DNA from: an uncultured virus (IMG/VR IMGVR_UViG_3300044825_001403)
Taxonomy: Duplodnaviria > Heunggongvirae > Uroviricota > Caudoviricetes
Virus record (IMG/VR): IMGVR_UViG_3300044825_001403
Coordinates: 62,001 to 126,000 of that record
Reading direction: 5' to 3' (one strand)
DNA: 64,000 nucleotides
The position numbers and the translations under genes are program-made. Shown one piece after another: positions 12,642 to 54,651 of the stretch (the first letter of the stretch is position 1; each line of letters begins with the position of its first letter). Under the pieces are notes generated by a model. That model made no database searches. It saw only the letters and a list, made by a program, of their open reading frames with translations, and was not told the DNA's origin.

Positions 12642-13387
12642 TGAAAAAGAAAGTTCCCACCGAAAAAGAAATTGCTCGTAAGCATGGTGTGCCTGTTGAA
12701 AAAATTATCAAACAGGCAGAAGTTGGTTCGACCGTAGAGCGAGAGCATGTTACTACACATGAAGAAGCATATGGTATTGCCCTTCAACATTTAGATGAAT
12801 TTCCAGACTACTACACTCATTTACTCAAAATGGAAAAAGAATTAAAAGCAAAACACAAAAAGAAAAAATCATACAAAGAAATCAAAGAATCTCTTGGTAT
12901 GGTAGAGAACCATATCGATGTTGCTATGGGCAGAGAACTTGATGATGAAGGAGCAATGATTCTCAATCAACTTGATGAAATTGAAATGTGTTGTCAACAC
13001 TTAAGAAAAACAATCACAGGAATGAATATGCAAGTTCCTGGCTGGGTACAAGCAAAGGTCACTCTTGCTGCTGATTATATTGATACTGCTGCTTCTTACA
13101 TGGACAACAAGAATGAAGAAACCGAAAAAAAGTCGATAGGCGAGTCTACATGGACTCGCAAAGCAGGACAAAATAAAAATGGTGGTCTAAACGAAAAGGG
13201 ACGCAAATCTTACGAAAGGGAAAATCCTGGCAGTGATTTGAAAGCTCCATCAAAAGAAGTTGGAAATCCTCGTAGAGCATCTTTCTGTGCCAGAATGCGG
13301 GGGTTAAAGAAAAAATTAACTTCAAAGAAAACTGCCAACGATCCAGATAGCAGAATCAATAAATCTCTTCGTGCTTGGAATTGCTAA
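12641..13387 (+). CDS. modular charged late protein with a basic C-terminal domain (WTRKAGQNKNGGLNEKGRKSY...RRASFCARM...SLRAWNC)
   Basis: 248 aa from the ATG overlapping the previous stop; contains an internal A_AAA_AAG plus hairpin (see findings). Confidence 0.7.
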   Translation: MKKKVPTEKEIARKHGVPVEKIIKQAEVGSTVEREHVTTHEEAYGIALQHLDEFPDYYTHLLKMEKELKAKHKKKKSYKEIKESLGMVENHIDVAMGRELDDEGAMILNQLDEIEMCCQHLRKTITGMNMQVPGWVQAKVTLAADYIDTAASYMDNKNEETEKKSIGESTWTRKAGQNKNGGLNEKGRKSYERENPGSDLKAPSKEVGNPRRASFCARMRGLKKKLTSKKTANDPDSRINKSLRAWNC

Positions 13388-13463
13388 CATAATATTGGTA
13401 ATATTTGTTACACCGTAAACACTGTATTCTAAATATAATATTAACAGTCTAAAGGTGAGAATT

Positions 13464-13700
13464 ATGGATACTAAAACCTGTCCCAAGTGTGGGGCACAGT
13501 GGATCGGCGGGCAGCATTTCTGGACTGGTACAAACAAGAAAGGTGATGAAACAGAGTTAGCATCTCTTGTTTGTGATAAGTTCGGGAATGATACATGTAT
13601 TAATCCTTGCAAAGGAACTACCGATGGTAAAGGGTGGGAAAATAGATTAAATAATATGGATGCTATTGATAAAGATATACAGAGGACTTTGAATGAGTAG
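13464..13700 (+). CDS. small Cys-rich hypothetical protein
   Basis: CPKCGA.W...C...CINPC; overlaps the g17 start. Confidence 0.65.
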   Translation: MDTKTCPKCGAQWIGGQHFWTGTNKKGDETELASLVCDKFGNDTCINPCKGTTDGKGWENRLNNMDAIDKDIQRTLNE

Positions 13701-15339
13701 TGATCAGATTTATTTGGGCAACCCGCTGCTAAAAAAAGCGAACGTTGCCCACAATTGGACAAAGGATGAAATTAAAGAATATATTAAGTGTAAGGAAGAT
13801 CCTGTATACTTTGCGGTAAACTACGTCAAAATTGTTTCGGTTGACGAAGGTTTGATTCCTTTCAGAATGTATGACTTCCAGAAAGAATTAGTTAATCGAT
13901 TCCACAACAATAGATTTAATATTGCCAAGCTTCCAAGACAGACAGGGAAATCAACCGTTGTGGTTTCCTATCTGCTTCACTATGCTTTGTTCAATGATAG
14001 TTCTAATATTGGTATTCTAGCAAACAAAGCGTCTACTGCTAGAGACCTATTGGGAAGATTGCAGACAGCATACGAGAATCTTCCTAAGTGGTTGCAACAG
14101 GGTGTTATCTCCTGGAACAAAGGTTCTATGGAACTAGAGAATGGTTCCAAGATCATGGCGGCGTCAACCTCAGCATCTGCCGTCCGAGGAATGTCATTCA
14201 ACATTATCTTCTTGGACGAATTTGCGTTCGTTCCAAATCACATTGCTGACGACTTCTTCTCGTCTGTATATCCTACCATTTCATCTGGTAAGAGCACGAA
14301 GGTTATCATCATCTCTACCCCGTATGGTATGAACCACTTCTACAAGTTGTGGGTAGATGCTCAAAACAAACGAAACAATTATATTTGGACAGAGGTTCAC
14401 TGGTCTGAAGTTCCTGGTCGTGATGCTAAGTGGAAAGAAGAAACAATCAAGAACACTTCAGAACGTCAATTCACTCAGGAATTTGAGTGCGAATTCTTAG
14501 GATCGGTTGACACTCTTATTTCTGCATCTAAACTTAGATCACTTGTTTTTGATACTCCAATCAGTTCAAACAAAGGTTTAGATGTTTATGAAAAACCAAA
14601 CGAAAAATCAGAATACATTATTACTGCCGACGTTAGTAGAGGTATAGGCGGTGATTATTCAGCGTTTATTGTTTTCGATATCACAACTGTTCCTTATAAG
14701 ATCGTAGCAAAATATAGGAACAACGAGATCAAACCGATGCTTTTCCCCAACGTTATTAATGACGTTGCTAGGGCATACAATAATGCTTATGTATTGTGTG
14801 AAGTGAACGACGTTGGTGATCAGGTAGCATCTATTCTTAACTACGATCTAGAGTATCCGAACGTATTGATGTGTTCTATGCGAGGTAGGGCAGGTCAAAT
14901 TGTTGGACAAGGATTCTCTGGAAATAAAACTCAGCTTGGATTGAAGATGTCCATTACTGTGAAGAAGGTTGGATGTGCCAATTTAAAACAGATGATCGAG
15001 GACGACAAGCTGTTGTTTAGAGATTACGAAATCATCTCTGAGCTTACCACATTTATTCAGAAAAAGCAATCTTTTGAGGCTGATGATGGATTTCATGATG
15101 ACCTTGTAATGTGTCTCGTTATCTTTGCCTGGCTTGCTGTTCAGGATTACTTTAAGGAAATGACGGACAATGATGTTCGTAAAAGAATCTACGAAGAGCA
15201 GAAAAATCAAATCGAACAAGACATGGCTCCATTTGGTTTTATCACAACAGGGTTAGAGGGTGATGAAGGTTTTGTTGAAGATGGAGTTCTTTGGTATGGG
15301 GATACACAAGAAGACATATCATATATGTGGAACCTTTAA
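13693..15339 (+). CDS. g17: terminase large subunit gp17
   Basis: Walker A PRQTGKST, Walker B IIFLDEFAF, ISTPYG, nuclease motifs ADVSRG and HDDLVM. Confidence 0.97.
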   Translation: MSSDQIYLGNPLLKKANVAHNWTKDEIKEYIKCKEDPVYFAVNYVKIVSVDEGLIPFRMYDFQKELVNRFHNNRFNIAKLPRQTGKSTVVVSYLLHYALFNDSSNIGILANKASTARDLLGRLQTAYENLPKWLQQGVISWNKGSMELENGSKIMAASTSASAVRGMSFNIIFLDEFAFVPNHIADDFFSSVYPTISSGKSTKVIIISTPYGMNHFYKLWVDAQNKRNNYIWTEVHWSEVPGRDAKWKEETIKNTSERQFTQEFECEFLGSVDTLISASKLRSLVFDTPISSNKGLDVYEKPNEKSEYIITADVSRGIGGDYSAFIVFDITTVPYKIVAKYRNNEIKPMLFPNVINDVARAYNNAYVLCEVNDVGDQVASILNYDLEYPNVLMCSMRGRAGQIVGQGFSGNKTQLGLKMSITVKKVGCANLKQMIEDDKLLFRDYEIISELTTFIQKKQSFEADDGFHDDLVMCLVIFAWLAVQDYFKEMTDNDVRKRIYEEQKNQIEQDMAPFGFITTGLEGDEGFVEDGVLWYGDTQEDISYMWNL

Positions 15340-15569
15340 TGGATATAGAAGATCAATTTTTGCTGGACCATCTTTTGTTTAGAGAAAGACGTTGTAGGTC
15401 TTGTGGAAAAGTAAAGGATCTTTTATCTGAATTTTATTTGACTAGAAAAGATAGAGCAACTGCAGCTTCTGCATATTCATATGAGTGTAAAAGTTGCACA
15501 ATGCAAAGAATAAAAAAATCTAGAGGCAAAAAAAATTTGAAATCATTGTGGGAATATCCTGACTGGTAG
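15339..15569 (+). CDS. small zinc-finger protein (CxxC...CxxC)
   Basis: RRCRSCGKVK...YSYECKSC...WEYPDW; ATG overlaps the g17 stop. Confidence 0.7.
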   Translation: MDIEDQFLLDHLLFRERRCRSCGKVKDLLSEFYLTRKDRATAASAYSYECKSCTMQRIKKSRGKKNLKSLWEYPDW

Positions 15570-15655
15570 ACTGTTCACGCATTGTTTCCCCATTCAAAAG
15601 ATACGAAATCATAAATAATTTTAGATTTAATCTGGATCACCAAGAGGATATTAAA

Positions 15656-17623
15656 ATGTCAAGTCAAGTCTCTCCTGGAATTGTTCTCAAAGAGCGTGAC
15701 CTATCTAATGTTGTGGTAACTAATGCATTGCAAATTACCGCTGCCTTTGCTTCTACATTTAAGAAAGGACCTATCAATCAAATTGTAAACATCAGCACTC
15801 AGAAAGAATTTGTTGATGTTTTTGGAAAGCCATCTGATGCTAATGCAGATGATTGGTTTGTTGCATCAGAATTTTTAAACTACGGTGGTAGACTAGCCGT
15901 TGTTCGTGCATCTTCTGGCGTTCTTAATGCTACTGCTGATGGCTCTGCCGTGCTAGTTAAAAACCAATTAGATTGGGAAGCTGGCACTGGATCATCAGAA
16001 AGATTTGTAGCTCGTACTGCTGGAACCTGGGGCAACTCACTCAAAGTAGTTGTTGTTGACAGAGGTGCTGATCAAATTATTACTTTAGCTGAAGTTCCTG
16101 ATACTGTTCCTTCGGCTGGTTCCAATGTCACTTTCAATGTTGGTGCTGGAACCAAAACCGCTGAGGTTGTATCTTGGGATGGCACCACTAAGAAGCTTGT
16201 TGTTGTATTAGATGATCCTACCACTTTAATTACTACAGCAAACACTCTTGAAGATGGTGCAAGTGATGTTGCTATTACTGCTGTAACTGATTGGTATCTA
16301 AACACAGAAATCGGCACCACTGGTATCGCTCTTTCTGCAGTTGGTCCTCGTCCTGGCACTTCTGAGTTTGCTGCTGCAAGAGGAATCAAGTATGACGAAG
16401 TACACGTTGCAGTAATTGATACGACTGGAGAAATCTCTGGTTCACCTAACACAATTCTAGAAAGACTAACTTATCTTTCAAAATTATCTGATGCAAGAAG
16501 TTCTGAAGGTGCAGTATCTTACTATAAGGATGTAGTTAATCTACAGTCTTCATACATCTATTCGGGAACTGCTCCAACCGCATCAATCAATCCTAGCACA
16601 ACTGGTGCAGGTGAAGCTTGGGGTCAAGTATCCACAGCTTTAACTTCTGGTGATCTATTTGCTCTTTGTGCATTATCAGAATCTTCGCTCAGCGGTGGAA
16701 CTGATGACTATGCTTACTCAGAAGCAGAAATTGGTGATGCATACGATCTATTCTTAGATACCGAAGAGGCTTCAATTGACTTCGTACTCATGGGTGGTTC
16801 ACTCTCAACTGAGAATGCTACTCTATCGAAGGCAAACAAAGTTATTCAAATTGCAACTTCAAGAAAGGATTGCCTAGCATTTGTTTCTCCTCACAAAGGA
16901 AATCAAATCGGTACTAGCGGTGCTTACACTGCTACTCAACAAAGAGATAACACGGTTGCATTCTTCCGTGGTTTAACTTCAACTTCTTATGCTGTATTTG
17001 ATAGCGGTTATAAGTATTACTACGACCGCTTCAATGATAAGTATCGTTACTTAGCTTGCAACGGAGACGTAGCAGGTTTATGTGTTGCTACTTCAGCATC
17101 TCTAGATGACTGGTTCTCGCCTGCTGGTGTCAACCGTGGTTCTCTAAGAAATGCTATCAAACTAGCATACAATCCAAACAAAGCTGATAGAGACCTTCTA
17201 TATCAAAACAGAATCAATCCTATTGTTTCTTTCCCTGGATCTGGTATTACTCTATTCGGTGACAAAACTGCCCTTGCTTCTCCAAGTGCATTCGACAGAA
17301 TTAACGTTCGTCGTTTATTCCTCAATATCGAGAAGCGTGTAGAGCAACTAGCCAAGCAAGTTCTGTTTGAGCAGAACGATGAAGTTACCAGAGCTTCATT
17401 TGCTGGTGCAGTGAATTCATACCTCAACGAAGTTCAAGCTCGTAGAGGTCTTACTGATTACCTTGTGGTATGTGATGTATCAAATAACACTCCAGATGTT
17501 ATTGACAGAAATGAATTTGTAGCTGAACTATTCATTAAACCAACCCGCTCAATTAACTATGTTACCGTAACATTTACTGCAACGAAGACTGGAGTTTCGT
17601 TCAGTGAAGTAGTGGGACGATAA
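15656..17623 (+). CDS. g18: tail sheath protein gp18
   Basis: SPGIVLKERDL...WFSPAG.NRG...INPIVSFPG...FDRINVRRLF. Confidence 0.97.
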   Translation: MSSQVSPGIVLKERDLSNVVVTNALQITAAFASTFKKGPINQIVNISTQKEFVDVFGKPSDANADDWFVASEFLNYGGRLAVVRASSGVLNATADGSAVLVKNQLDWEAGTGSSERFVARTAGTWGNSLKVVVVDRGADQIITLAEVPDTVPSAGSNVTFNVGAGTKTAEVVSWDGTTKKLVVVLDDPTTLITTANTLEDGASDVAITAVTDWYLNTEIGTTGIALSAVGPRPGTSEFAAARGIKYDEVHVAVIDTTGEISGSPNTILERLTYLSKLSDARSSEGAVSYYKDVVNLQSSYIYSGTAPTASINPSTTGAGEAWGQVSTALTSGDLFALCALSESSLSGGTDDYAYSEAEIGDAYDLFLDTEEASIDFVLMGGSLSTENATLSKANKVIQIATSRKDCLAFVSPHKGNQIGTSGAYTATQQRDNTVAFFRGLTSTSYAVFDSGYKYYYDRFNDKYRYLACNGDVAGLCVATSASLDDWFSPAGVNRGSLRNAIKLAYNPNKADRDLLYQNRINPIVSFPGSGITLFGDKTALASPSAFDRINVRRLFLNIEKRVEQLAKQVLFEQNDEVTRASFAGAVNSYLNEVQARRGLTDYLVVCDVSNNTPDVIDRNEFVAELFIKPTRSINYVTVTFTATKTGVSFSEVVGR

Positions 17624-17655
17624 TTATATACCAAAAATCATCGAGGTAAACAACA

Positions 17656-18309
17656 ATGGCGTATACAAGTAAACTCAGCGATTTCATTAGTAAGGTAGGA
17701 CAAGGCGTAAAGCCTAACATGTTCCTAGTTGATCTTCAGTTTCCATCAGGATCTATCGGTGCTGGTGGAACTGGAACTGGTACTGTAACTGCAGACGAAA
17801 AAGAACTTACCAATTTAATGTGTAAGTCTGCTGCACTTCCAGCATCAAACCTAGGAGTTATCGAAGTTCCTTTCCGTGGTCGTACAGTAAAAATTGCTGG
17901 CGACAGAACTTTCGATACCTGGAGCCCAACATTCATCAATGATAAGGACTTCAAGGTTCGTGCAATCATGGAGCAGTGGTCAGAAGCGATCAATGGTCAT
18001 GCTGGTAACACGGCTGATCTTCTTACTCCTTCTGCTGCAGATGCAAATGGTTACACAGCACACCTTCTAGTTCACCAACTAGAGAAAGCTCCAACTCCAG
18101 ATGCAAATGGCATTGGTGGTAATATTCTCAGAACTTACAAGCTCTGGTATGCATTCCCAACCAATATTTCTCAGATTGATCTTGCTTATGATAGCAATGA
18201 CCAAATTGAAGAGTTCTCAGTTGAGTTCCAGTATTCATACTGGACTACAGAAACTCCAAGCAACGCAAGACAAAACGCATCAAATCGTCAAATTAACGCT
18301 GACGTTTGA
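17656..18309 (+). CDS. g19: tail tube protein gp19
   Basis: CKSAALPASNLGVIEVPFRGRTVKIAGDRTF...FPTNISQIDL...IEEFSVEFQY. Confidence 0.95.
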   Translation: MAYTSKLSDFISKVGQGVKPNMFLVDLQFPSGSIGAGGTGTGTVTADEKELTNLMCKSAALPASNLGVIEVPFRGRTVKIAGDRTFDTWSPTFINDKDFKVRAIMEQWSEAINGHAGNTADLLTPSAADANGYTAHLLVHQLEKAPTPDANGIGGNILRTYKLWYAFPTNISQIDLAYDSNDQIEEFSVEFQYSYWTTETPSNARQNASNRQINADV

Positions 18310-18343
18310 TAACTAAATAGAGTATCGAATTAAATAATTTAAT

Positions 18344-20032: not shown

Positions 20033-20056
20033 GATTATAAATTAGGTTATATTTAT

Positions 20057-20233
20057 ATGTCTAATACTTTGAATATTGTAAGTGCAATTGCCGATAAAAA
20101 CAAATCGGATGCTTTGGATATGGTTCATGATTTGATGAAAACATCTGCAGCAGAAGCTTTGGGTATGTACAAAAAATCCGTTGCTTCTACTTATTTTGAT
20201 GAACCAGTAGAACCACTAGAGACAGAAGAATGA
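20057..20233 (+). CDS. small prohead core protein candidate (gp67/gp68 position)
   Basis: 58-aa ORF MSNTLNIVSAIADKNKSDALDMV...EPLETEE read by hand; between g20 and g21, stop overlaps the g21 ATG. Confidence 0.65.
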   Translation: MSNTLNIVSAIADKNKSDALDMVHDLMKTSAAEALGMYKKSVASTYFDEPVEPLETEE

Positions 20234-26662: not shown

Positions 26663-27154
26663 ATGGCAAAAAAGAAAACAGAAAATTACGTCAATAACAA
26701 AGAATTCCTAGAGGCTATTAGCGTTTACAGGAAGAAAGTTCTTGAAGCAAAAGAGAAAGGTCTGCCTAAGCCTCGGGTTCCGAATTATATTGGCGACTGT
26801 TTTCTTAAAATTGCTACGCACTTATCCTATAAACCAAACTTTGTAAACTATATGTTCCGTGATGAGATGATCTCAGACGGGATTGAAAATTGTTTACAAT
26901 ATATTCACAACTTCGATCCAGAAAAATCAAGTAATCCCTTTGCCTATTTTACTCAGGTAATTTACTTTGCCTTCCTTCGTAGAATCGCCAAAGAGAAAAA
27001 GCAACTGGAAATCAAAACTAAGATCCTTGAGCGTAGTGGATACGATCATGTGATGTATACTGAAAGTTTTGAAGGAGATATGGCAGGACTTAATCAAAGC
27101 TATTCTGATATGTCTGGCATTAAAGAAAACCTTGAGATTAAAAATAAGCGATGA
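26663..27154 (+). CDS. g55: late-transcription sigma factor gp55
   Basis: YVNNKEFL...YIGDCFLKIA.HLSYKPNF.NY...MISDGIENC...NPFAYFTQ. Confidence 0.95.
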   Translation: MAKKKTENYVNNKEFLEAISVYRKKVLEAKEKGLPKPRVPNYIGDCFLKIATHLSYKPNFVNYMFRDEMISDGIENCLQYIHNFDPEKSSNPFAYFTQVIYFAFLRRIAKEKKQLEIKTKILERSGYDHVMYTESFEGDMAGLNQSYSDMSGIKENLEIKNKR

Positions 27155-30217: not shown

Positions 30218-30251
30218 TGGGCTATACTGACTTCAGTTCAGAGAAATTCCA

Positions 30252-32435
30252 ATGCCCGTTGTTAACCACGAAGTCAAAGGTACTCTTGCCAAACTGCTGG
30301 CAACGGAGAACCTCATCATTGAGCACAAGAAGGTGCCTACAGCATGTTTTGATGTGCAACGCCGTGTCCTGACCCTGCCGATCTGGGACAGGGCTTCTGG
30401 GGTCGTATACGACCTTCTGGTGGGGCATGAGGTTGGACATGCTCTCTACACCCCGAACGAAGATTGGCGAGAGATCGCTGACGTTCCCAAAGATTATGTG
30501 AACGTTGTAGAAGATGCTCGTATCGAAAAACTGATGAAGCGTAAGTTTCCTGGTCTCGCCCGTACTTTCTACAATGGTTATAGCGAACTGAATCGTGATG
30601 ACTTCTTCAGTATTGCTGATGAAGATCTTAGTAAACTTACTCTCATTGACCGTATTAATCTTCACTTCAAGATTGGTGCCTATGCTCAGATGCCGTTCAA
30701 CGAGTTTGAGCAGCAGTTTGTTGAGATGATTGAAGGTGCAGAAACCTTCCAGCAAGTGCTGACCATCTGTGAACTGATTCACAAATATGTGAAAGAGAAG
30801 CAGCAGGAAGAACTGTCGCTTTCTATTCAATCCAGTTCTGGTCAACAAGGCGGCGGAGATTCTGCTGGACAATCTGATCAACAAATGACCAGTGAAGGGC
30901 AAAGCATGATCAATCCTGGTAGTGATGCTCAGCAGGAACAAGCTAGCGGTGGTGTCAGTGCTGAAGCACCAGAAGCTCCCATCGGCTCTGGTGGTGGCGG
31001 TCCCAACGAAGAATTGAACGAAGAAGTTTCTAAAACCCAGCAAGCATTTGATCAGCAAGCAGAAAAGCTGACCAATCACTATGCCAGCGAAACTACTTAC
31101 ATCGAACGTCCCCAACTAAAGATGGATGATGTGATTGCTGATTACAAAATCCTTAACGATTACATTAATGCCCACTTCAGTGAAGTTGCTAATGTTTCTC
31201 AGTATCGTGAAAATGCTTTTAAAGAGGTCGATGCTGATTATAAGAAGTATCGTACCGAAGCACAAAAGGAAGTGAACTATCTGGTTAAAGAGTTTGAGAT
31301 GAAGAAGTCGGCAGATGCTTACCAGCGTATGTCTACTGCTCGTACTGGTACTCTCGACACCAGCAAACTTCACACCTATAAGTACAACGAAGATTTGTTC
31401 CGTAAGGTTTCTGTGATTCCTGATGGCAAGAATCATGGTCTGGTGTTCGTGCTGGACTGGTCTGGTTCGATGAATGATTATCTGCTTGATACGGTGAAAC
31501 AACTGCTGAACCTTGTGTGGTTCTGTAAGAAAGTTCAGATTCCTTTTGAGGTGTATGCTTTTACCTACGAGTGGAGCAACTCTTATGTTGATTCCAACTA
31601 CAGTGCTCCCAAGTCTTTGTACAAAAAGCAAGACGGCACTATTGAAGTTCATCGTCGCTTCCGTCTGCTGAACTTTCTGAGTTCTCGTGCCAACAACAAA
31701 GTGCTGGACAACTGTATTCAAAATCTGTGGCGTCTTGCTGCCCGTGAGGATTCCAATTACAATGGTGCTACTTATCATCACTATGGTGTTCCTGCTGGTC
31801 TTGATCTCAGTGGAACTCCTCTTAATGAATCCATCATTGCTCTTCATCAGATCATTCCTCAGTTCAAGACTCGCAACAAACTTCAGAAAGTTAACGTTGT
31901 CATTCTGACTGACGGTGAAGCAAATCATCTAAATTTTGATTTGAATATTCAACGCCCTAATGGTTCTTACAATTACATTGGACAAAACTACATCAGTGGT
32001 GGTAATGCTCTTCGGGATCGTAAGATCGGTTATGTTTATCGTAACTTTGAAATGGATAACGTGAACAGCAACTTGACTGCTATTCTTCTGGAGAATCTGA
32101 AAGATAACTTCCCCGAAGTGAATCTGATTGGATTCCGAATCTGCAGTGGCAATAGTTTCTCTTATCTTTATCGGTCTCTTTACAAATCCAATGGCGGTGG
32201 AGTTGAACCCGATGAAGCCATGAAAGTATGGCGTAAAGAAAAGTCCTATGAAATTAATGGTGCTGGGTATGATGCCCTGTACATGATTTCTTCTCACGAC
32301 TTGGCAGTTGACACTACTATGACAGTTGACGAAGAGGCTACTGCTGCTGACATCGGACGGGCATTCCGTACTATGCTCAAGAAGAAGACAACGAACAAGA
32401 AGCTCCTGTCTTCCTTCGCTACCCTGGTCGCTTGA
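30252..32435 (+). CDS. metallopeptidase-like/vWA domain protein (CobT-like partner of CobS)
   Basis: HEVGH zincin motif and NVVEDARIE; MIDAS motif LDWSGSM, GTPL, LTDGE. Confidence 0.8.
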   Translation: MPVVNHEVKGTLAKLLATENLIIEHKKVPTACFDVQRRVLTLPIWDRASGVVYDLLVGHEVGHALYTPNEDWREIADVPKDYVNVVEDARIEKLMKRKFPGLARTFYNGYSELNRDDFFSIADEDLSKLTLIDRINLHFKIGAYAQMPFNEFEQQFVEMIEGAETFQQVLTICELIHKYVKEKQQEELSLSIQSSSGQQGGGDSAGQSDQQMTSEGQSMINPGSDAQQEQASGGVSAEAPEAPIGSGGGGPNEELNEEVSKTQQAFDQQAEKLTNHYASETTYIERPQLKMDDVIADYKILNDYINAHFSEVANVSQYRENAFKEVDADYKKYRTEAQKEVNYLVKEFEMKKSADAYQRMSTARTGTLDTSKLHTYKYNEDLFRKVSVIPDGKNHGLVFVLDWSGSMNDYLLDTVKQLLNLVWFCKKVQIPFEVYAFTYEWSNSYVDSNYSAPKSLYKKQDGTIEVHRRFRLLNFLSSRANNKVLDNCIQNLWRLAAREDSNYNGATYHHYGVPAGLDLSGTPLNESIIALHQIIPQFKTRNKLQKVNVVILTDGEANHLNFDLNIQRPNGSYNYIGQNYISGGNALRDRKIGYVYRNFEMDNVNSNLTAILLENLKDNFPEVNLIGFRICSGNSFSYLYRSLYKSNGGGVEPDEAMKVWRKEKSYEINGAGYDALYMISSHDLAVDTTMTVDEEATAADIGRAFRTMLKKKTTNKKLLSSFATLVA

Positions 32436-32518
32436 CCAGTTCCCAATCTGTCCACTGGGGGTGGCAACGCCCCCAACCCCTGCTATAATTAACACATCCA
32501 CAAAGGAGATTACTCATC

Positions 32519-33652
32519 ATGGCTCGTAAAGCAAACATTGAACAAGAAGCCCTCATCGCTTATATTTCCACTCACTTTGGCGAAGACTTTGGTAGCAACG
32601 CTGTAATTGCTGCTGCCGAAGAATTTGGTAGTTCGTATCCCACCATCGCCAAGCGTCTTGATCAATACAAGACTGGTCATGGTCGTTGGAACCTGACTGC
32701 CCAAGATATTGAAAACACTTACAACGCTCCTGCTGCTGAACCTGCTGAGCAAGCAGTTGAGCATGTTGTGATCCACCGTGAAAATCTGATTCCTGATAAA
32801 GATGCTAACTTCGTCAGCTTTGGTAACTTCAGTGATGTTAAGAAAATCATTTCTTCTGGTATTTTCTATCCTGTGTTCATCACTGGTATGTCTGGCAATG
32901 GTAAAACTTTCGGTGTGGAGCAAGCTTGTGCTCAACTGAAGCGTGAACTGATCCGTGTGAACATCACCATCGAGACTGATGAAGACGATCTGATCGGTGG
33001 TTTCCGTCTGATCAATGGAGAAACTGTGTGGCACAACGGTCCTGTTATCGAAGCTCTTGAGCGTGGTGCTGTTCTGCTGCTTGACGAGATCGACCTTGCT
33101 TCTAACAAGATCCTGTGCCTTCAGTCGATTCTTGAAGGTAAGGGCGTGTTCCTGAAGAAGACTGGTCGTTATGTGAAGCCTGCCGCTGGGTTTACCATCG
33201 TTGCCACTGCCAACACCAAAGGTAAGGGTTCTGATGACGGTCGTTTTATTGGCACCAATGTTCTGAACGAAGCGTTCCTTGAGCGATTCGCTCTCACCTT
33301 TGAACAGGATTATCCTGGTCCGAAAACTGAGCAAAAGATTCTTGAGAAACTTTCCAAGAAGCTTGGCTGTCTGGATGAAGAATTCTGTGAGAAGCTTGCT
33401 GCTTGGGCAGACATTATCCGTAAGACTTTCAAGGATGGTGGCGTTGATGAAGTGATCAGCACCCGTCGTTTGTCCCACATCATTCGTGCCTACAGCATCT
33501 TCGGCAAGCGTATGAAAGCGATTCAAGTTTGTGTGAATCGTTTCGATGACGAAACCAAGTCCAGCTTCCTGGAGCTGTATGACAAGATCGACGCTAGCGT
33601 TGGTGCCGATATCAATAACGATGCTCCAGTGGAAGAGAATGAAGAAGCCTGA
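32519..33652 (+). CDS. cobS: CobS-like MoxR AAA+ ATPase
   Basis: GMSGNGKT, ETDEDDLIGG, LLLDEID, ATANTKGKG, NEAFLERF, ISTRRL. Confidence 0.9.
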   Translation: MARKANIEQEALIAYISTHFGEDFGSNAVIAAAEEFGSSYPTIAKRLDQYKTGHGRWNLTAQDIENTYNAPAAEPAEQAVEHVVIHRENLIPDKDANFVSFGNFSDVKKIISSGIFYPVFITGMSGNGKTFGVEQACAQLKRELIRVNITIETDEDDLIGGFRLINGETVWHNGPVIEALERGAVLLLDEIDLASNKILCLQSILEGKGVFLKKTGRYVKPAAGFTIVATANTKGKGSDDGRFIGTNVLNEAFLERFALTFEQDYPGPKTEQKILEKLSKKLGCLDEEFCEKLAAWADIIRKTFKDGGVDEVISTRRLSHIIRAYSIFGKRMKAIQVCVNRFDDETKSSFLELYDKIDASVGADINNDAPVEENEEA

Positions 33653-36515: not shown

Positions 36516-36898
36516 AGTATGAGTTAAAAGATTATCTTAACGCAATTAATCAATCAAAAAAGAAACTTCTTGATGATGATCAAGAAGCGGTAAAAGGCTA
36601 TCCATCTTTTATCATTAATAAATGCTTGTCTTCATTTACAGATACTGTTCTGTATGCTAACGAGATGAACAAGAATGCTCATCTAGACAAGAAACTTCAG
36701 TTTGACTTCTATATAAATAGTTTGAAACCAAGGAAACGTTTTAGTCCCTGGGTTAAAAAACAAACACTTGAGAATCTTGAATTGGTGAAAGAGTATTATG
36801 GCTATAGTCATAACAAAGCTTTAGAAGCATTACAAATTCTCACAACTGATCAACTTGAAGCTATCAAAAAAGCATTGTATAAGGGTGGAACAAAATGA
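36512..36898 (+). CDS. g62: clamp loader small subunit gp62
   Basis: DYLNAIN...YPSFIINKCLS...ANEMN...RKRFSPW...VKEYYGYS..KA. Confidence 0.92.
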   Translation: MKYELKDYLNAINQSKKKLLDDDQEAVKGYPSFIINKCLSSFTDTVLYANEMNKNAHLDKKLQFDFYINSLKPRKRFSPWVKKQTLENLELVKEYYGYSHNKALEALQILTTDQLEAIKKALYKGGTK

Positions 36899-44575: not shown

Positions 44576-45487
44576 ATGGAACGACAAAGAGCAACGACCC
44601 AACTAGCACATTATGACGATTTTTCTAAAGCATTGATTGAGTCGTCAGTCAGATATCTTGGCGAAGAAGGAATTCCTTCATTGCAAAAGAAAGGTAATGA
44701 AGATGATTTCTCAAAGAAAGATCCTAAAGCAAAAGCAGCTCCTGCTGACCCAGCAATCAATATTGCTGCTGGCACTGGCACAAAACAATCTCATGGTGCA
44801 GAGATTGAATATACTACAGTTCGTGCCAAGAACGTACAGCGTGAAGAAGTAGAAAAGGAAGACGAGAGTAAAGCTGAAGAAGAAAAAGAAAAGAAGATGA
44901 GCAAGACTGCCAAGGAAAAGCATGAGAAGGCAGAAGACAAGAAAGAAAAGGAAATGAAGGAAACCTACGAGTTAGAACTGGATGGCAATACTTACATCTT
45001 TGAGAAAAAGATGGATGGTAAGGATGACAATGGTTTCACGTCATGTTGGAAAGGATACAAGAAAGTTGGCACCAAAATGAAGGGTGGCAAAGAAGTTAAT
45101 AATTGTGTTAAAGCAGGTTATGAACCAATTGGTGAATTAGTGCTTGATGAAAAAGCCCCCGCTGGGGCTAAGTTTGAAAGAATGGTTAAACATATTAAGA
45201 AGAGCTATTCTAAAGATGGTTTAACTGATAAAGAAAAGGGTATTGCTTACGCTACTGCATGGAAGCAAAAGAATAAAGAACAGAAAGAAGAGTTTGATTT
45301 AACTGAAAAGAAACTTGATGCAGTAGGAAAGGAAGATAAAGATATTGATAATGATGGTGATCATGATAAGTCAGATAAGTATCTTTTAAATCGTCGTAAA
45401 ACAGTAGGTAAAATTCTTGCTGCCAAGAAAAAAGTTAATGAAATGATTGCTTGGGAACAGGAGATTATCGCTGAAAAAAAGAACTGA
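44576..45487 (+). CDS. Lys/Glu-rich late protein, possibly head-internal; probable -1 frameshift extension to 45636
   Basis: 303 aa with CWKGY...G.K.K.GK.V.NCV, AYATAW and LDAVGKED.DIDNDGD.D.SD.YL.NRR modules; ends GAA AAA AAG AAC TGA. Confidence 0.7.
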   Translation: MERQRATTQLAHYDDFSKALIESSVRYLGEEGIPSLQKKGNEDDFSKKDPKAKAAPADPAINIAAGTGTKQSHGAEIEYTTVRAKNVQREEVEKEDESKAEEEKEKKMSKTAKEKHEKAEDKKEKEMKETYELELDGNTYIFEKKMDGKDDNGFTSCWKGYKKVGTKMKGGKEVNNCVKAGYEPIGELVLDEKAPAGAKFERMVKHIKKSYSKDGLTDKEKGIAYATAWKQKNKEQKEEFDLTEKKLDAVGKEDKDIDNDGDHDKSDKYLLNRRKTVGKILAAKKKVNEMIAWEQEIIAEKKN

Positions 45488-45646
45488 AGGCATCCACTGT
45501 AGAAGTGATGCCTGAAATTCCAAATAGTCCTGAAGACGGAGAAAGCTCTAAGAAGAATAAAAAGTACATCGGTAGAGCAGTAAACACACAGAAAAAAGAT
45601 AAGCTAAATATTACGGGGTCCCCTCGATCAATTTAGGAGCAAAATT

Positions 45647-48189: not shown

Positions 48190-48204
48190 TAGAGGATTAA
48201 GTAG

Positions 48205-48639: not shown

Positions 48640-49625
48640 TGAGTTACATTGATGTCAAGTACATTGGTCTAGTATCCCCCCAACTTCAAAAATTTTCAAA
48701 GAAAAAAGATTCCCTCTACAATTTCCGATGCCCTTACTGTGGTGATAGTAAGAAGCATCAGAATAAAACTAGAGGGTATCTTTTTAAGGTAAAGAATGAT
48801 TTTGTATTTAAATGCCACAACTGTGGTGTGGGGAGAACCTTTACCAATTTCCTAAAAGATAACTGTGCCCATCTGCATAATCAGTATGTGATGGAACGTT
48901 ATCGTGAAGGACTTACTGGTAAAAATACACAAACTAAAAATCCAGATTTCAATTTCAAGAAACCAGAATTCCAGAAGAGAAAAACAGGAATTGATCTGGA
49001 AAAGATTTCAGAACTAAATATTACACACCCAGCTCGGGTGTACTTAGAAGAAAGAAAAATTAAAGATCTCGATTATTTTTATTACTGTCCCAAATTTAAA
49101 GAATGGACGAACTCACAGCGACAAGTTTTCCCAAACTTAAAGCAAGATGGTCCTAGAATTATCATACCTCTCAGGGATAAAGATGGAAACATGTTTGGAT
49201 ATCAAGGTAGGTCAATGGCTCCCAAAGCCAAGATTAGATACATCACAATCATGTTAGATGATTCTAAGACCAAAATATTTGGGATGGACAGGGTAGACGA
49301 AGACAAACCAATTTATGTTACCGAAGGACCATTTGATAGTATGTTCCTTTCTAATAGCATTGCTATGTGTGGTAGTGATGTCAACATTAACAATAAAAAT
49401 TTGGTATATGTTTTTGATAACGAACCTAGAAATAAAGAGATTGTATCCAAATATGATAAAGCAATTGACGATGGAGAACGGATAGTTATCTGGCCACAAA
49501 CCATTGTTGAAAAAGATATCAATGACATGGTATTGGCTGGACATGACGTTCAAAGTGTGGTAGAATCAAACACCTACCAAGGCTTAGAAGCAAAACTTAA
49601 ATTTACAACCTGGAAGAAAGTATGA
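48639..49625 (+). CDS. g61: DNA primase gp61
   Basis: NFRCPYCGDS...CHNC zinc finger, YQGR, TEGPFDSMF, FDNEPRN, KDINDM. Confidence 0.96.
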   Translation: MSYIDVKYIGLVSPQLQKFSKKKDSLYNFRCPYCGDSKKHQNKTRGYLFKVKNDFVFKCHNCGVGRTFTNFLKDNCAHLHNQYVMERYREGLTGKNTQTKNPDFNFKKPEFQKRKTGIDLEKISELNITHPARVYLEERKIKDLDYFYYCPKFKEWTNSQRQVFPNLKQDGPRIIIPLRDKDGNMFGYQGRSMAPKAKIRYITIMLDDSKTKIFGMDRVDEDKPIYVTEGPFDSMFLSNSIAMCGSDVNINNKNLVYVFDNEPRNKEIVSKYDKAIDDGERIVIWPQTIVEKDINDMVLAGHDVQSVVESNTYQGLEAKLKFTTWKKV

Positions 49626-51934
49626 GTAACGGCATTAAAGTTCAAAAACGTGATGGCACTATTGAAGCTTTAAATCTAGATAAGATTCATCGTATGGTCG
49701 ATGAAGCTTGTGATGGACTTGCTGGAGTTTCTGCGTCTCAAGTAGAAATGAATTCTGGCATTCAATTCTATGATGGCATTACAACAGAAGAAATTCAAGA
49801 AATTCTAATTCGTTCTGCCAGTGATCTTATTTCACTGGACAATCCTAATTATCAATTTGTTGCGGCTCGTCTTCTTTTGTTCGCCTTACGCAAGCAAGTT
49901 TTCCACAAGAACATTTGGAAAGAAGGTATGCCCAGCATTTATGATGTGGCCCTATATAATTCAACTGTGCTGGGAGTATATGATGAAGAAATTCTTGACA
50001 AGTATACAGATGAAGATTGGACAAAGATTAACAGTTGGGTAGAGCACGATAGAGATTATCTTTTCTCCTATGCTGGTCTTCGCCAGGTAGTTGATAAGTA
50101 TCTTGTTCAAGACAGAAGCAGTGGAGAAATTTTTGAAACTCCACAGTATATGTACATGATGATTGCTTTGACCCTGTTTGCAGAGTATCCACTTTCAGTA
50201 CGATTGGATTACGTTCGCCGTTACTACAATGCCATCTCAAAGCACAAGATCAACATCCCCACGCCAATCATGGCGGGAGTCAGAACAACTCTTAGACAAT
50301 TCGCTAGTTGTGTTCTTATTGATTCTGATGACACCCTCAATAGCATCTTTAGCAGCGACATGGCTATTGGTCGCTACGTTGCTCAGAGGGCGGGTATTGG
50401 TATCAACGCTGGCAGAATCCGTGGAGTCAACAGTAAGATCCGAGGGGGAGAAGTTGCTCATACAGGGGTTATCCCATTCCTCAAAAAGTTTGAAGCAACT
50501 GTCAGATGCTGTACACAAAACGGGATTCGTGGTGGAAGTGCTACTGTCCACTTTCCAATCTGGCACCAAGAAATAGAAGACATTATTGTTCTTAAGAACA
50601 ATAAAGGCACAGAAGATAATCGAGTGCGTAAGCTTGATTACTCAATTCAAACTAGCAAATTGTTCTATGAGAGATTCATTCAAAACGGAGATATCACATT
50701 ATTCTCACCTCACGATGTTCCTGGTCTTAATGATGCTTTTGGTACTCCCGATTTCGATGACCTATATAAGCGTTATGAGTCTGATGATTCAATTCCCAAA
50801 AAACGAGTTAGTGCCCAGGAATTAACCCTTTCTCTACTCAAAGAACGTGCAGAAACTGGTCGTGTTTATATTATGAATATCGACCATTGTAATTCACACT
50901 CTTCTTTCCTAGATAAAGTTTGGATGAGTAATCTCTGTCAAGAAATCACACTTCCCACAGATCCTATTCAACACATTGACGGTGATGGTGAAATTGCTCT
51001 TTGTATTCTTTCTGCTATCAATGTAGGCAAACTCAAGAATCTTGATGATCTTGAAGAACTATGTGATCTTTCTGTTCGTGGTCTTGAAGAGTTAATTGAT
51101 TATCAAAACTATCCCGTGAAAGCAGCTGAGATTTCTACAATTAATCGTCGTTCACTTGGAGTTGGCTATATTGGCTTAGCTCATTATCTAGCAAAACATG
51201 GAGTAAAATATGACGACCCAACCGCTTGGAAACTCGTCCACGACCTTACTGAAGCTTTCCAGTTCTATCTGCTCAAGTCATCAAACACCATCGCCAAAGA
51301 GAAAGGAGCATGTGGATATTTTAATCGAACGAAGTATTCAGACGGTATTCTCCCAATCGACACTTATAAAAAAGACGTAGACGAAATTGTACCTAATAAT
51401 TTAAATTATGATTGGGAGACTTTACGTTCCGAGATTCAAACATATGGACTACGACATTCAACGTTGTCCGCACAAATGCCTTCGGAAAGCAGTTCCGTTG
51501 TGTCAAATGCCACAAATGGAATTGAGCCGCCTAGAGATTACTTGTCCGTTAAGAAATCAAAGAAAGGACCTCTTAAGCAGATTGTCCCCAGTTATCAAAC
51601 TCTCAAAAATGCTTATACGCTTCTTTGGGATATGCCTAACAATACTGGTTATATCAATATTGTTGCTGTTATGCAGAAGTTCTTTGATCAAGCGATTTCT
51701 GGAAACTGGTCGTATAATCCAGAGAATTATGCCGATAATGAAGTTCCTACTTCGGTAATGGCTCAAGACTTCCTCAATACTTATAAGTATGGATGGAAAA
51801 CTTCTTACTATCAAAATACATATGATGCTAAGAAGGATGAAGTTACCGAAGATCGACGCCAGCAAGATGTCGAAGATATGCTCAATGATTTGTTAAACCT
51901 ACAGGAGGACGATTGTGACAGTTGTAAAATTTAA
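49622..51934 (+). CDS. nrdA: class I ribonucleotide reductase alpha subunit
   Basis: ATP cone (VQKRDG), PTPIMAG, QFASC, SNLCQEI, MPSESSS, C-terminal CDSC. Confidence 0.97.
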   Translation: MSNGIKVQKRDGTIEALNLDKIHRMVDEACDGLAGVSASQVEMNSGIQFYDGITTEEIQEILIRSASDLISLDNPNYQFVAARLLLFALRKQVFHKNIWKEGMPSIYDVALYNSTVLGVYDEEILDKYTDEDWTKINSWVEHDRDYLFSYAGLRQVVDKYLVQDRSSGEIFETPQYMYMMIALTLFAEYPLSVRLDYVRRYYNAISKHKINIPTPIMAGVRTTLRQFASCVLIDSDDTLNSIFSSDMAIGRYVAQRAGIGINAGRIRGVNSKIRGGEVAHTGVIPFLKKFEATVRCCTQNGIRGGSATVHFPIWHQEIEDIIVLKNNKGTEDNRVRKLDYSIQTSKLFYERFIQNGDITLFSPHDVPGLNDAFGTPDFDDLYKRYESDDSIPKKRVSAQELTLSLLKERAETGRVYIMNIDHCNSHSSFLDKVWMSNLCQEITLPTDPIQHIDGDGEIALCILSAINVGKLKNLDDLEELCDLSVRGLEELIDYQNYPVKAAEISTINRRSLGVGYIGLAHYLAKHGVKYDDPTAWKLVHDLTEAFQFYLLKSSNTIAKEKGACGYFNRTKYSDGILPIDTYKKDVDEIVPNNLNYDWETLRSEIQTYGLRHSTLSAQMPSESSSVVSNATNGIEPPRDYLSVKKSKKGPLKQIVPSYQTLKNAYTLLWDMPNNTGYINIVAVMQKFFDQAISGNWSYNPENYADNEVPTSVMAQDFLNTYKYGWKTSYYQNTYDAKKDEVTEDRRQQDVEDMLNDLLNLQEDDCDSCKI

Positions 51935-53099
51935 ACTCAACGAAGAACCCATGAGCCACATTCAAGGAATGACTGTATTCAATACAGAAGAAGTCAATAC
52001 TCTAAAACAACCGATGTTCTTTGGTGCCCCCTTGGGGGTCCAAAGATATGATCAATTTAAGTATCCTGTCTTTGATAAACTGACTCAACAACAACTTGGT
52101 TATTTCTGGAGACCTGAAGAAGTTTCTCTTCAGAAAGATCGTGCTGATTATCAAACTCTTCGTCCTGAACAAAAACACATTTTCACTTCTAACCTTAAGT
52201 ACCAGATCCTCTTGGATTCTGTACAGGGGCGTGGTCCTGGGATGGCTTTTCTTCCTTACTGTTCACTACCTGAGCTTGAATCTTGTATGACGGCGTGGGA
52301 ATTTATGGAGATGATTCACTCCCGTTCATACACTTATATCATCAAGAATGTGTATCCAGATCCTTCAGAAGTTCTTGATACTATTATCAATGATGAGCAA
52401 ATCCTTCAACGTGCTCAAAGTGTAACTAAGTCATACGACGAATTCATTCAAGCTGCTCAGGATTATTCTTCTGGTAATCAATGGCAGCATCAACTTGAAG
52501 GTGTTCCTGCTGCTAAAGAAACTCTTTATGAACTCAAAAGAAAACTATACCGTGCCATTGTTAACGTTAATATTCTGGAAGGTATACGCTTTTATGTCTC
52601 GTTCGCTTGTTCTTTTGCCTTTGGCGAACTCAAACTCATGGAAGGAAACGCCAAAATCATCGGACTAATTGCCCGTGATGAATCACAACATCTTGTAATC
52701 ACACAGAATATTATTAATAAGTGGCATAGTAATGATGACCCAGACATGCTACAGATTGCCAAAGAAGAAGAGCAAACTGTTTATGATATGTTTAGGCAAT
52801 GTGTTGAGGAAGAAAAATGTTGGGCAGATTATCTTTTTAAAGATGGTTCTATGATTGGTTTGAATGCTAAATTACTTCAAAAGTATGTTGAGTGGACAGC
52901 TAATCGTCGCCTCAAAGCAATTGGTCTCAACCCAATCTTTGATGCTCCTTTGAATAACAATCCTCTTCCCTGGACTGAACATTGGCTATCTTCTAAAGGT
53001 CTTCAAGTTGCCCCACAAGAAACAGAAGTTGAATCTTATGTGATCGGTGGTCTTAAACAAGATGTGAAAGAAGATACTTTCGCTGGATTCCAGCTTTAA
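51915..53099 (+). CDS. nrdB: class I ribonucleotide reductase beta subunit
   Basis: FWRPEEVSL, EMIHSRSY, LEGIRFYVSF, IARDESQH, QVAPQETE. Confidence 0.97.
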   Translation: MTVVKFKLNEEPMSHIQGMTVFNTEEVNTLKQPMFFGAPLGVQRYDQFKYPVFDKLTQQQLGYFWRPEEVSLQKDRADYQTLRPEQKHIFTSNLKYQILLDSVQGRGPGMAFLPYCSLPELESCMTAWEFMEMIHSRSYTYIIKNVYPDPSEVLDTIINDEQILQRAQSVTKSYDEFIQAAQDYSSGNQWQHQLEGVPAAKETLYELKRKLYRAIVNVNILEGIRFYVSFACSFAFGELKLMEGNAKIIGLIARDESQHLVITQNIINKWHSNDDPDMLQIAKEEEQTVYDMFRQCVEEEKCWADYLFKDGSMIGLNAKLLQKYVEWTANRRLKAIGLNPIFDAPLNNNPLPWTEHWLSSKGLQVAPQETEVESYVIGGLKQDVKEDTFAGFQL

Positions 53100-53109
53100 A
53101 CTGAATAGA

Positions 53110-53135
53110 TAAATACCTCCGAAAGGAGGTTTTTT
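53110..53135 (+). terminator. terminator overlapping a TAAATA late promoter
   Basis: TAAATA then acctcc-GAAA-ggaggt and T run. Confidence 0.75.
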
Positions 53136-53138
53136 ATT

Positions 53139-53477
53139 ATGAAAGTGCAATCAGCAAAAGCGAAAGGTCGCCGTCTTCAACAATGGGTTCGTGATAAACT
53201 TATCGAAATGCTTGATGTCCATCCTGAAGATATTGAAAGTAGATCTATGGGTGCTGGTGGGGAAGATTTAATTATGGCACGAGCTGCCAGACAAAAGTTT
53301 CCTCACAGCATTGAATGTAAAAATGTAGAAAAGTTAAATGTTTGGGAAGCATATGAACAAGCCCAAGCAAACTCAGGTGATTATGAACCAGTCCTTGTCA
53401 TGAAAAAGAATGGCAAAAAGCCATTGGTTGTAGTAGATGCCGAGTATTACATTCAACTTCACGGAGAAAAACAATGA
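53139..53477 (+). CDS. PD-(D/E)XK Holliday-junction-resolvase-like nuclease
   Basis: SAKAKGRRLQQ...GEDL...SIECKN...W..YEQA. Confidence 0.7.
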   Translation: MKVQSAKAKGRRLQQWVRDKLIEMLDVHPEDIESRSMGAGGEDLIMARAARQKFPHSIECKNVEKLNVWEAYEQAQANSGDYEPVLVMKKNGKKPLVVVDAEYYIQLHGEKQ

Positions 53478-54178
53478 AAATTACTTTACAAAATTTCTTT
53501 GAACACTTTGATAAGAATAATCCGAATCATGTAAAAGCAGTACAAATGTTTCTACATGCCCTAGAAAAAGCAGCACCAGAAGAACTAGAAGATACTTCTG
53601 GCTGGGTCAAAACATTCAGAACACCTGTTCAAAAACAAGCAACAAATATTTTAGAAAACTTTCCTTGGTTTCCTCAGACAGACAACTACAGGGATGCACA
53701 AAGAACTTGTAATAGTTCTGCCTGTGCTATGTGCTTAGAATATTTAAAGCCAGGTACACTCAAAGGACCTAAAGGTGATGATGCTTATGTTCAAAAAGTA
53801 TTTGCTATAGGTGATACCACTGACCACACGGTTCAAACTCGTGTGTTGATGTCTTATGGTATTAATTCTGCTTTTAGATATAACTTAACATTTGATGAAC
53901 TCGATAAGCAACTTGCAGCCAAGCGTCCAGTTGTTATTGGAATCCTTCACAGGGGAACCCTAGCAGCCCCTACAGGAGGCCATATGGTTGTTGTGATTGG
54001 GAAGACGCCCGCAGGCGATTACATCGTTCACGACCCTTATGGCAGCCTTAACGACGGTTATACAGGACCTGTTACAAATGGCAGGGGTGCGGTGTATAAG
54101 CGTAGCGATCTTGTGCGTAGATGGTGTCCTGCAGGAAATGATGGTTGGGGTAGAGTTTTTGATGCTGTAAAAAAGTAG
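53474..54178 (+). CDS. C39-like (papain-fold) peptidase, putative cell-wall hydrolase
   Basis: PWFPQTDN...RTCNSSACAM (catalytic Cys), GGHMVVVIG (His), IVHDPYG (Asp). Confidence 0.8.
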   Translation: MKITLQNFFEHFDKNNPNHVKAVQMFLHALEKAAPEELEDTSGWVKTFRTPVQKQATNILENFPWFPQTDNYRDAQRTCNSSACAMCLEYLKPGTLKGPKGDDAYVQKVFAIGDTTDHTVQTRVLMSYGINSAFRYNLTFDELDKQLAAKRPVVIGILHRGTLAAPTGGHMVVVIGKTPAGDYIVHDPYGSLNDGYTGPVTNGRGAVYKRSDLVRRWCPAGNDGWGRVFDAVKK

Positions 54179-54651
54179 AAAGTTCTATCCCTCAAGCTGG
54201 GATAGAACTTATACGTGAGTTTGAAGGATGTCATTTACATGCCTATCCAGACCCAAAAACTGGCGGACCTCCTATTACAATTGGATGGGGAAGTACTAAA
54301 GATTTTAATGGTCAATCATTTAAAATGGGAAGGACAATAACACGAGAATATGCTGATAAACTTTTAGAATTTGATATTAAAAACAGATTCCTTCCTTATC
54401 TAGAAAAAATTCCTTATTGGGGAGAAATGAATGACAATCAACGGGGAGCACTTCTCAGCTTTGCTTATAATCTCGGTGCTGGCTTTTATGGCGGAGTTGG
54501 TTTTAATACTATCTCTCGCAATTTACGTGAGAAAGATTGGTTATCAATCCCAAAAACATTAGAATTGTATCGTGATCCTGGCACTAACGTAGAAGCAGGA
54601 TTACTGAGGAGAAGGAGAAGAGAAGGTTCTTTGTGGTTAGGAATAGGGTAA
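54175..54651 (+). CDS. GH24 phage lysozyme domain, reachable by -1 frameshift from the upstream peptidase
   Basis: -1 frame reads VESSIPQAGIELIREFEGCHLHAYPDPKTGGPPITIGWGST...ALLSFAYNLG...GLLRRRRREG.LW; the first ATG (54325) lies downstream of the catalytic E/D/T segment. Confidence 0.85.
   Translation, partial: VESSIPQAGIELIREFEGCHLHAYPDPKTGGPPITIGWGSTKDFNGQSFKMGRTITREYADKLLEFDIKNRFLPYLEKIPYWGEMNDNQRGALLSFAYNLGAGFYGGVGFNTISRNLREKDWLSIPKTLELYRDPGTNVEAGLLRRRRREGSLWLGIG

Follow-up and report, generated by a model that had tools for sequence, protein, structure and literature searches.

Among described systems of programmed -1 ribosomal frameshifting, two stand closest to the loci considered here, and both use the heptamer A_AAA_AAG. 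In the orfA-orfB arrangement of IS911 and the IS3 family, the upstream open reading frame (ORF) carries the heptamer close to its 3' end, the shift fuses two domains into one enzyme, the upstream product appears by itself as well, and stimulators are found both upstream and downstream. In Escherichia coli dnaX, the source of tau and gamma, the same heptamer has a hairpin a few nucleotides (nt) to its 3' side and a Shine-Dalgarno (SD)-like element about 10 nt to its 5' side, AAG is read by tRNA-Lys(UUU) only, and the product of the shift is shortened (described in part in the Atkins 2016 review, PMC5009743). Here, we analyze a 64,000-nt stretch of DNA from an uncultured virus (IMG/VR record IMGVR_UViG_3300044825_001403), referred to as the window, in which three such heptamers, sites 1 to 3, are each followed by a predicted hairpin. 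Two of them, site 3 between a C39-like peptidase and a phage lysozyme and site 2 at the end of a gene for a lysine-rich protein, are very likely programmed -1 frameshift sites, judging from comparative sequence evidence.

A conserved -1 shift near a gene end is familiar among phages from the G/GT tail assembly chaperone of lambda, where short and long forms are made at a fixed ratio, and T4-like phages are not known to use a lambda-type G/GT shift. As for lysins, the PRFect paper cites a lactococcal phage lysin from two overlapping frames among those "known to contain a frameshift." A literature search with subscription journals outside its coverage found no publications on frameshifting in cyanophage genes, and a search by terms of part of the Atkins 2016 review gave no match for cyanophage, endolysin, lysozyme, or Synechococcus. 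The lysis genes of T4-like cyanophages, marine and freshwater, are poorly understood, and reference genomes, that of Synechococcus phage S-PM2 included, annotate the lysozyme as a truncated stub.

The window comprises bases 62001 to 126000 of a 127,664-base contig, and exact copies of all three loci are present on a 171-kb IMG/VR contig of the same phage. Pfam and PHROG scans recover a T4-like protein set (portal gp20, gp23, sheath, gp17, UvsY, UvsW, gp43, gp41, gp44/62, regA, and NrdAB), with hsp20 and MazG likewise encoded. S-PM2 is the nearest named relative, at ~70% nucleotide identity, and the runs that contain the phage sequence are labelled freshwater metagenomes, with no RNA run listed among them. 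The source phage is a freshwater T4-like cyanomyovirus (Kyanoviridae).

Three phased heptamers followed by stable predicted hairpins

At all three sites the heptamer is in the zero-frame phase A_AAA_AAG, and a predicted hairpin begins 4 to 7 nt downstream (Table 1). None of 200 dinucleotide shuffles, from which the z-scores (z) were also calculated, was as stable as the native hairpin at any site. Ranked against 11,506 genic windows of the same contig, the hairpins fall in the lowest 1.0% at site 1, 0.9% at site 2, and <0.1% at site 3. Ten heptamers are in phase among 168 crudely called ORFs of the 127.7-kb contig, and of these sites 1 to 3 have the three strongest downstream folds; the binomial probability that three of ten reach the ≤1% hairpin level is ~1e-4. 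The heptamer as such is not enriched, with 35 copies on both strands of the window against 35.7 ± 5.8 expected, and the copies in ORFs are split 24/10/6 over the three phases, a distribution in which we see neither avoidance nor excess.

Phase and fold statistics, the shuffled controls among them, thus confirm the starting claim of a first-pass annotation of the window, that three phased heptamers each have a stem 4 to 7 nt downstream and stand at a stop or domain boundary. Other parts of that annotation need revision. It had found no comparable stem at the remaining in-phase heptamers, and this is mostly right: stems are lacking at the site at 26668 (0 kcal/mol), at hsp20 (z +0.36), and at the other sites except those at 36556 and 37020 on the plus strand, which have moderate ones (gp62, z -2.32; regA, z -2.35). 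Its description of the strategy as genome-wide was overstated: among slippery sites near ORF ends across the contig, a substantial conserved -1 frame opens only at site 2 (48 codons) and site 3 (156 codons), and the regA and gp62 heptamers are not conserved. Two more long -1 frames in that scan were read as artefacts of the crude ORF set. Nor is the assignment to late genes borne out; TATAAATA, which we take to be the late-promoter motif, occurs four times in the window versus 4.8 expected and never just 5' of the three genes.

The regA and gp62 heptamers also serve as controls. In-phase copies are retained in 10 of 79 distinct relatives for regA and in 1 of 76 for gp62, and conservation of a Lys-Lys pair alone therefore does not hold a heptamer in place.

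Table 1. Coordinates of the three heptamers and of the features around them, numbered from the first letter of the window (aa, amino acids)
Site	Feature	Position	Strand	Evidence
3	Zero-frame ORF for a C39-like cysteine peptidase of 234 aa; last codons GTA AAA AAG TAG	53474-54178	+	Pfam Peptidase_C39_2, E 2e-10
3	Slippery heptamer A_AAA_AAG, TAG (54176-54178) immediately 3'	54169-54175	+	Phase in ORF
3	Predicted, putatively stimulatory hairpin, 12 bp with 7-nt loop	54180-54210	+	-18.3 kcal/mol, z -5.28
3	-1 continuation, GH24 (phage lysozyme) domain	54169-54651	+	Pfam Phage_lysozyme, E 2e-21; phrog_3617 positions 240-403
2	Zero-frame ORF, 303-aa lysine-rich protein (phrog_4359), ending GAA AAA AAG AAC TGA	44576-45487	+	PHROG
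2	GGAG, SD-like, 11 nt 5' of heptamer	45460-45463	+	Same spacing in 8 of 8 distinct window-type junctions
2	Slippery heptamer A_AAA_AAG, one codon ahead of TGA (45485-45487)	45475-45481	+	Phase in ORF
2	Predicted hairpin, outer stem AGGCAUC...GAUGCCU	45488-45513	+	-13.4 kcal/mol, z -3.89
2	-1 tail, 53 codons, KKELKASTVEVMPEIP...	45475-45636	+	phrog_11250, E 7e-10
1	ORF, 254 aa, DUF5661 (residues 15-73) and DUF6321 (183-252)	12623-13387	+	Pfam; PHROG matches for the DUF6321 part from residue 151-166
1	Heptamer A_AAA_AAG, E-K-K residues 167-169 (residue 168 of 254)	13126-13132	+	Phase in ORF
1	Predicted hairpin, GC-rich, GCGAGUC(U)...(G)GACUCGC	13140-13159	+	-13.1 kcal/mol, z -5.69

A lysozyme without a start codon at site 3

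The peptidase ORF at site 3 matches positions 1 to 234 of the 405 in phrog_3617, as well as phrog_10051 ("endolysin"), and with the lysozyme in the -1 frame it covers consecutive parts of that one PHROG profile. Both catalytic domains are present and collinear with those of S-CREM1 and ACG-2014f, relatives in which they form one fused ORF; sequence searches with the peptidase gave no PDB hits. The -1 frame is open from 54163, and its first ATG, GTG, or TTG comes only at 54325. Because the -1 ORF aligns with whole solved GH24 lysozymes starting at their residue 5 or 6, a product begun at that codon would be without the catalytic N-terminus. Among other named relatives, S-PM2 shares the layout of the window, its lysin being annotated as 72 aa, and S-SRM01 has an ATGA overlap.

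We surveyed this junction in 85 loci (80 from IMG/VR, four isolates, and the window), which reduce to 63 distinct junctions. The lysozyme lies in the -1 frame in 50 of them, and 48 of these carry an in-phase heptamer, abutting the stop in 36 and one codon before it in 12; the two that lack it both have an ATGA overlap start. No in-phase heptamer occurs in the three junctions with a single fused ORF or in the 10 from which the lysozyme is absent. In 33 of the 48 heptamer junctions there is no ATG, GTG, or TTG at all ahead of the lysozyme domain. The lysine pair is spelled AAA AAG in all 48, versus 40 of 199 such pairs contig-wide. Ahead of the pair stands Val in 27 junctions, Ala in 20, and Glu in 1, always with a codon ending in A (GTA, GCA, or GAA); over the whole contig, GTA accounts for 33% of the codons for Val and GCA for 36% of those for Ala. 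Across these junctions the flanking codons drift synonymously and the heptamer is invariant.

The 3' arm of the hairpin is formed by the G-I-E-L codons at the start of the lysozyme domain and its 5' arm by the linker, and among relatives the linker arm changes to match the arm on the conserved lysozyme codons. In 42 relatives, representing 26 distinct arm sequences with relatedness not corrected for, arms pair far better with their own partners than with those of others (self duplex -17.5 versus cross -9.0 kcal/mol; permutation p ≤ 1e-4). Where no overlap start is present (42 junctions), the median background percentile of the hairpin is 2.4%, versus 17 to 88% in the six junctions that have one.

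As the lysozyme has no start codon ahead of its catalytic N-terminus, shifting would set its dose, and the data fit the proposal to this effect in the first-pass annotation. Frameshifting is probably the sole route to the phage's cell-wall lysozyme, and the shifted product, by its domain content, would be a bifunctional endolysin joining a peptidase to a GH24 muramidase.

Located 1.1 kb 3' of the lysozyme is an ORF with a DPBB_1 domain (RlpA-like lytic transglycosylase fold; 55783 to 56145, plus strand); at the matching place, S-PM2 has an annotated "lipoprotein precursor."

A conserved -1 tail at site 2

At site 2, GAA AAA AAG with a stop behind it, the heptamer standing zero or one codon ahead, is retained in 10 of 11 distinct relatives whose sequence extends to the C-terminus, including S-PM2 and S-RIM32. 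The S-PM2 versions of the two cassettes are at p142/p143 and p156/p157. The single exception reads AAG AAG TCA TGA and has an ATGA start of its own 27 codons 5' of the shared VEVMP motif, which is therefore internal to that protein. The spacing of GGAG differs in S-PM2 and S-RIM32, where it ends 8 nt 5' of the heptamer. The outer stem of the hairpin is retained in eight relatives (percentile 1 to 14%), without covariation. Read in the -1 frame, the four TVEV codons 5' of a conserved internal ATG vary solely in their third bases, a coding-type pattern of substitution, and the tail of S-PM2, at 97 aa, carries DUF3008.

Site 1 and the number of cassettes

The site 1 ORF is flanked by genes for a virion protein and for the large terminase, and its heptamer falls between the N-terminal part of the protein and DUF6321. 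Here, a shift would lead to a stop at 13174 to 13176, 16 codons on. A reading fully compatible with frameshifting at sites 2 and 3, and one that we hold to be rather probable, is that only these two are cassettes and that site 1 combines a chance choice of codons for E-K-K with a hairpin inherited in a small clade. Heptamer and hairpin occur together in four distinct close variants only, and about 30 other distinct homologues carry different linkers. In-phase heptamers are common in this protein family because the linkers are lysine rich, and in other lineages they lie elsewhere in the linker and have weak hairpins (percentile 6 to 74%). The -1 frame is a dead end of 3 to 16 codons, no SD-like element is seen upstream, and the chance that one of the eight leftover heptamers would reach the 1% hairpin level is ~8%.

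Against chance stand the stability of the hairpin, which has the lowest z of the three, and a design that repeats that of site 3, in which the linker supplies the 5' arm and the 3' arm occupies the opening conserved codons of the domain that follows, here the W-T-R codons of DUF6321. The stem is retained in two relatives (L172 and L173 in our numbering), and in a third (L446) a C-to-U change yields a G-U pair. Moreover, three relatives (L192, L198, and L204) encode the N-terminal part alone, with the same end point as site 1. A search for relatives that would add DUF6321 by a -1 shift at G_GGA_AAG found none: of 80 loci, 13 gave no match to DUF6321, and the 54 distinct junctions among the rest divide into 52 in frame and two stand-alone with ATG; a scan with a degenerate pattern, which may not fit such cases, was likewise negative. 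We therefore regard a frameshift cassette at site 1 as plausible but unproven and advance it only tentatively. The proposal that one cassette is reused in three genes thus stands, with strong comparative evidence, for sites 2 and 3, and not yet for site 1.

A motif just 5' of site 1 (P-x-W-V-Q-x-K-x-T-x-A-A-D-Y...Y-M; window positions 13040 to 13125) recurs in a different phage (L100, at about 2190 to 2590), where it lies in the -1 ORF 3' of a site 2 homologue. This recurrence suggests that the proteins at sites 1 and 2 use a common pool of shuffled small modules on lysine-rich linkers. In direct comparison P0001 and P0002 show no similarity (E 0.45), and they have some multi-module PHROG matches in common.

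Restarts, slippage, and error as alternatives

Several observations weigh against frameshifting at sites 2 and 3. Some ATG, GTG, or TTG precedes the lysozyme domain in 15 of the 48 site 3 junctions, overlapping the stop in 6, the spacers of the minimum-free-energy structures at this site are short (0 to 9 nt, with modes of 2 and 5), and no SD-like element is seen 10 to 14 nt 5' of its heptamer. The site 2 hairpin is weak in S-PM2 and S-RIM32, and the -1 codon that overlaps the site 2 stop is NTG in seven of eight relatives (GTG in four, ATG in one, TTG in one, and CTG in the window; ATA in L112), so that stop-start coupling could make the tail separately in most of them. Finally, no Rfam frameshift-element family, the DnaX covariance model included, matched anywhere in the window at E ≤ 1.

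The first of these points bear on translational coupling, in which the ribosome would stop, be held by the hairpin or open it, and restart at an overlapping or nearby start in the -1 frame, giving two separate proteins. The overlaps just described (ATGA or GTGA in the 6 relatives at site 3) suit such a restart, as does the ATG covered by the 3' arm of the site 2 hairpin. Coupling has no start to use, however, at the 33 site 3 junctions that lack one, and at site 2 it would have to work with CTG in the window and ATA in L112. At site 2, 20 nt separate the GGAG from the NTG, a longer distance than suits the SD element of a start site, and at site 3 the hairpins are weak at those junctions that have overlap starts. 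Coupling also leaves unexplained why the heptamer is invariant, down to the wobble A of a preceding codon that otherwise varies, and why its loss coincides exactly with the presence of a start codon or a fusion. On this evidence, coupling is an improbable account of sites 2 and 3.

Transcriptional slippage, by which RNA polymerase would add an A within the run so that some mRNAs encode the fusion in frame, is more improbable still. A homopolymer is present, of six A at site 3 and seven at sites 1 and 2, but efficient slippage is a property of runs of about 9 or more. Slippage requires no final G, no phase, no adjacent stop, and no covarying hairpin, yet all of these are conserved, and at site 3 the length of the run is constant, with no indel, in DNA contigs from independent samples.

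That nothing is programmed, and that sequencing errors at error-prone homopolymers or decaying genes with chance hairpins explain junctions whose downstream ORFs public annotations show as truncated or separate, is scarcely credible. The data contradict it at sites 2 and 3, and it stands for site 1. The identical frame break at site 3 is common to 48 distinct sequences, among them Sanger-era S-PM2 and the re-sequenced record of that phage, the lysozyme remains intact among relatives at 60 to 77% identity, the hairpins have z of -3.9 to -5.7, and the control heptamers drift.

tRNA-Lys context

The first-pass annotation was correct that the window holds no tRNA-Lys gene, and tRNA searches found none on the whole 127.7-kb contig either; the phage encodes tRNA-Lys(UUU) outside the window, on its 171-kb contig. 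In Synechococcus WH7803, taken here as a host-type strain rather than as the identified host of this phage, a full inventory of 43 tRNA matches holds Lys-UUU only and no CUU. Partial searches, by similarity or pattern, of four further picocyanobacteria returned one Lys-UUU each and no CUU. The inventory that the earlier annotation had called for thus gives the UUU anticodon alone for both phage and WH7803, and no CUU isoacceptor would be available for tuning. In E. coli, reading of AAG by tRNA-Lys(UUU) alone is a condition for high shifting on A_AAA_AAG.

The presence of the phage tRNA gene varies among lysin layouts. S-PM2, which has the cassette, and S-CREM1, in which the ORF is fused, carry copies 97% identical to that of this phage, but no copy occurs in ACG-2014f, also fused. 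Of two cassette contigs, a complete one carries a copy and one that is 98% complete has only a weak 75% match, and a complete contig without the lysozyme has no copy. In S-PM2, this tRNA-Lys(UUU)-like gene (NC_006820, 118652 to 118726) is located ~2 kb 3' of the frameshifted lysin locus.

The A_AAA_AAG cassettes might constitute a small recoding regulon, in which the amount or modification of the phage tRNA-Lys, raised during infection, would shift slippage jointly, with a late lysozyme fusion helping to time lysis and site 1 dropping a domain. We rate this extension as decidedly unlikely.

Other features of the window

Further along the plus strand, the tRNA model matches a 120-nt segment at 56936 to 57055 (55.1 bits) that ARAGORN left uncalled and that may represent a tRNA interrupted by an insertion or intron. 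The Rfam wcaG RNA motif (58272 to 58380, plus strand; 58.6 bits versus a gathering score of 42) lies between tRNA genes and an ORF of the phage that encodes an S-layer homology (SLH) domain (58523 to 59404, plus strand; E 2e-11). On the minus strand, antisense ORFs of 297, 270, 190, and 338 aa tile nearly all of 30222 to 33526, opposite a 727-aa ORF without a Pfam match and an AAA_5 ATPase gene on the plus strand (30252 to 33652); the tiling may be an effect of composition.

Proposed mechanism and significance

Sites 2 and 3 would act as -1 cassettes of the dnaX/IS911 type placed at a gene end, with a stop that follows the heptamer directly or after one codon. The ribosome, with tRNA-Lys on A_AAA_AAG, would be stalled by the hairpin a few nucleotides to the 3' side, and a fraction of the stalled ribosomes would slip one base back and go on in the -1 frame. 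At site 3, unshifted ribosomes would yield the peptidase by itself and shifted ones a peptidase-lysozyme fusion of ~391 aa; at site 2, the outputs would be the 303-aa protein with or without a tail of ~50 aa, with GGAG as a likely third stimulator. If site 1 works, it would do so in the dnaX way, giving a shortened form without the DUF6321 end domain. The analysis establishes the phase, the structure predictions, nucleotide-level conservation, covariation, the lysozyme without a start, and the tRNA-Lys set of WH7803; that a shift occurs at sites 2 and 3, how efficient it is, and what purpose it serves are inferred.

If this reading is true, the phage makes its muramidase solely by extending a peptidase, at a ratio fixed by RNA sequence. 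It would correct the annotation of many genomes and provide a handle on how abundant cyanophages open the wall of their hosts. The same cassette in two or three unrelated genes, together with a host that has a single tRNA-Lys, would offer a natural system for the study of co-regulated recoding.

Comparison with known systems

What is new in the window is the presence of two putative cassettes and a possible third in one genome, along with their tRNA-Lys context. The mechanism is textbook, and the finding therefore extends known biology rather than overturning it. The resemblance to dnaX takes in the heptamer, the hairpin close behind it, the upstream element (GGAG at site 2), the reading of AAG by tRNA-Lys(UUU) only, and, for site 1, the shortened product that a shift would give; in the absence of an Rfam match we regard it as analogy, not homology. 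Unlike in dnaX, a shift at sites 2 and 3 would extend the protein, the stop being zero or one codon 3' of the heptamer, and the genes are those of a phage with a cyanobacterial host. The IS911 arrangement comes close in the position of the heptamer and in the production of both an upstream product and a fusion, and differs in that its product is a transposase rather than a lysin or a protein of unknown function, and in that most junctions described here are without independent downstream initiation. The lambda G/GT shift shares the site near the gene end but uses the heptamer G_GGA_AAG, needs no hairpin, and serves another function. The lactococcal phage lysin, as far as the passage that cites it describes the case, differs from site 3 in host, enzyme families, and signal.

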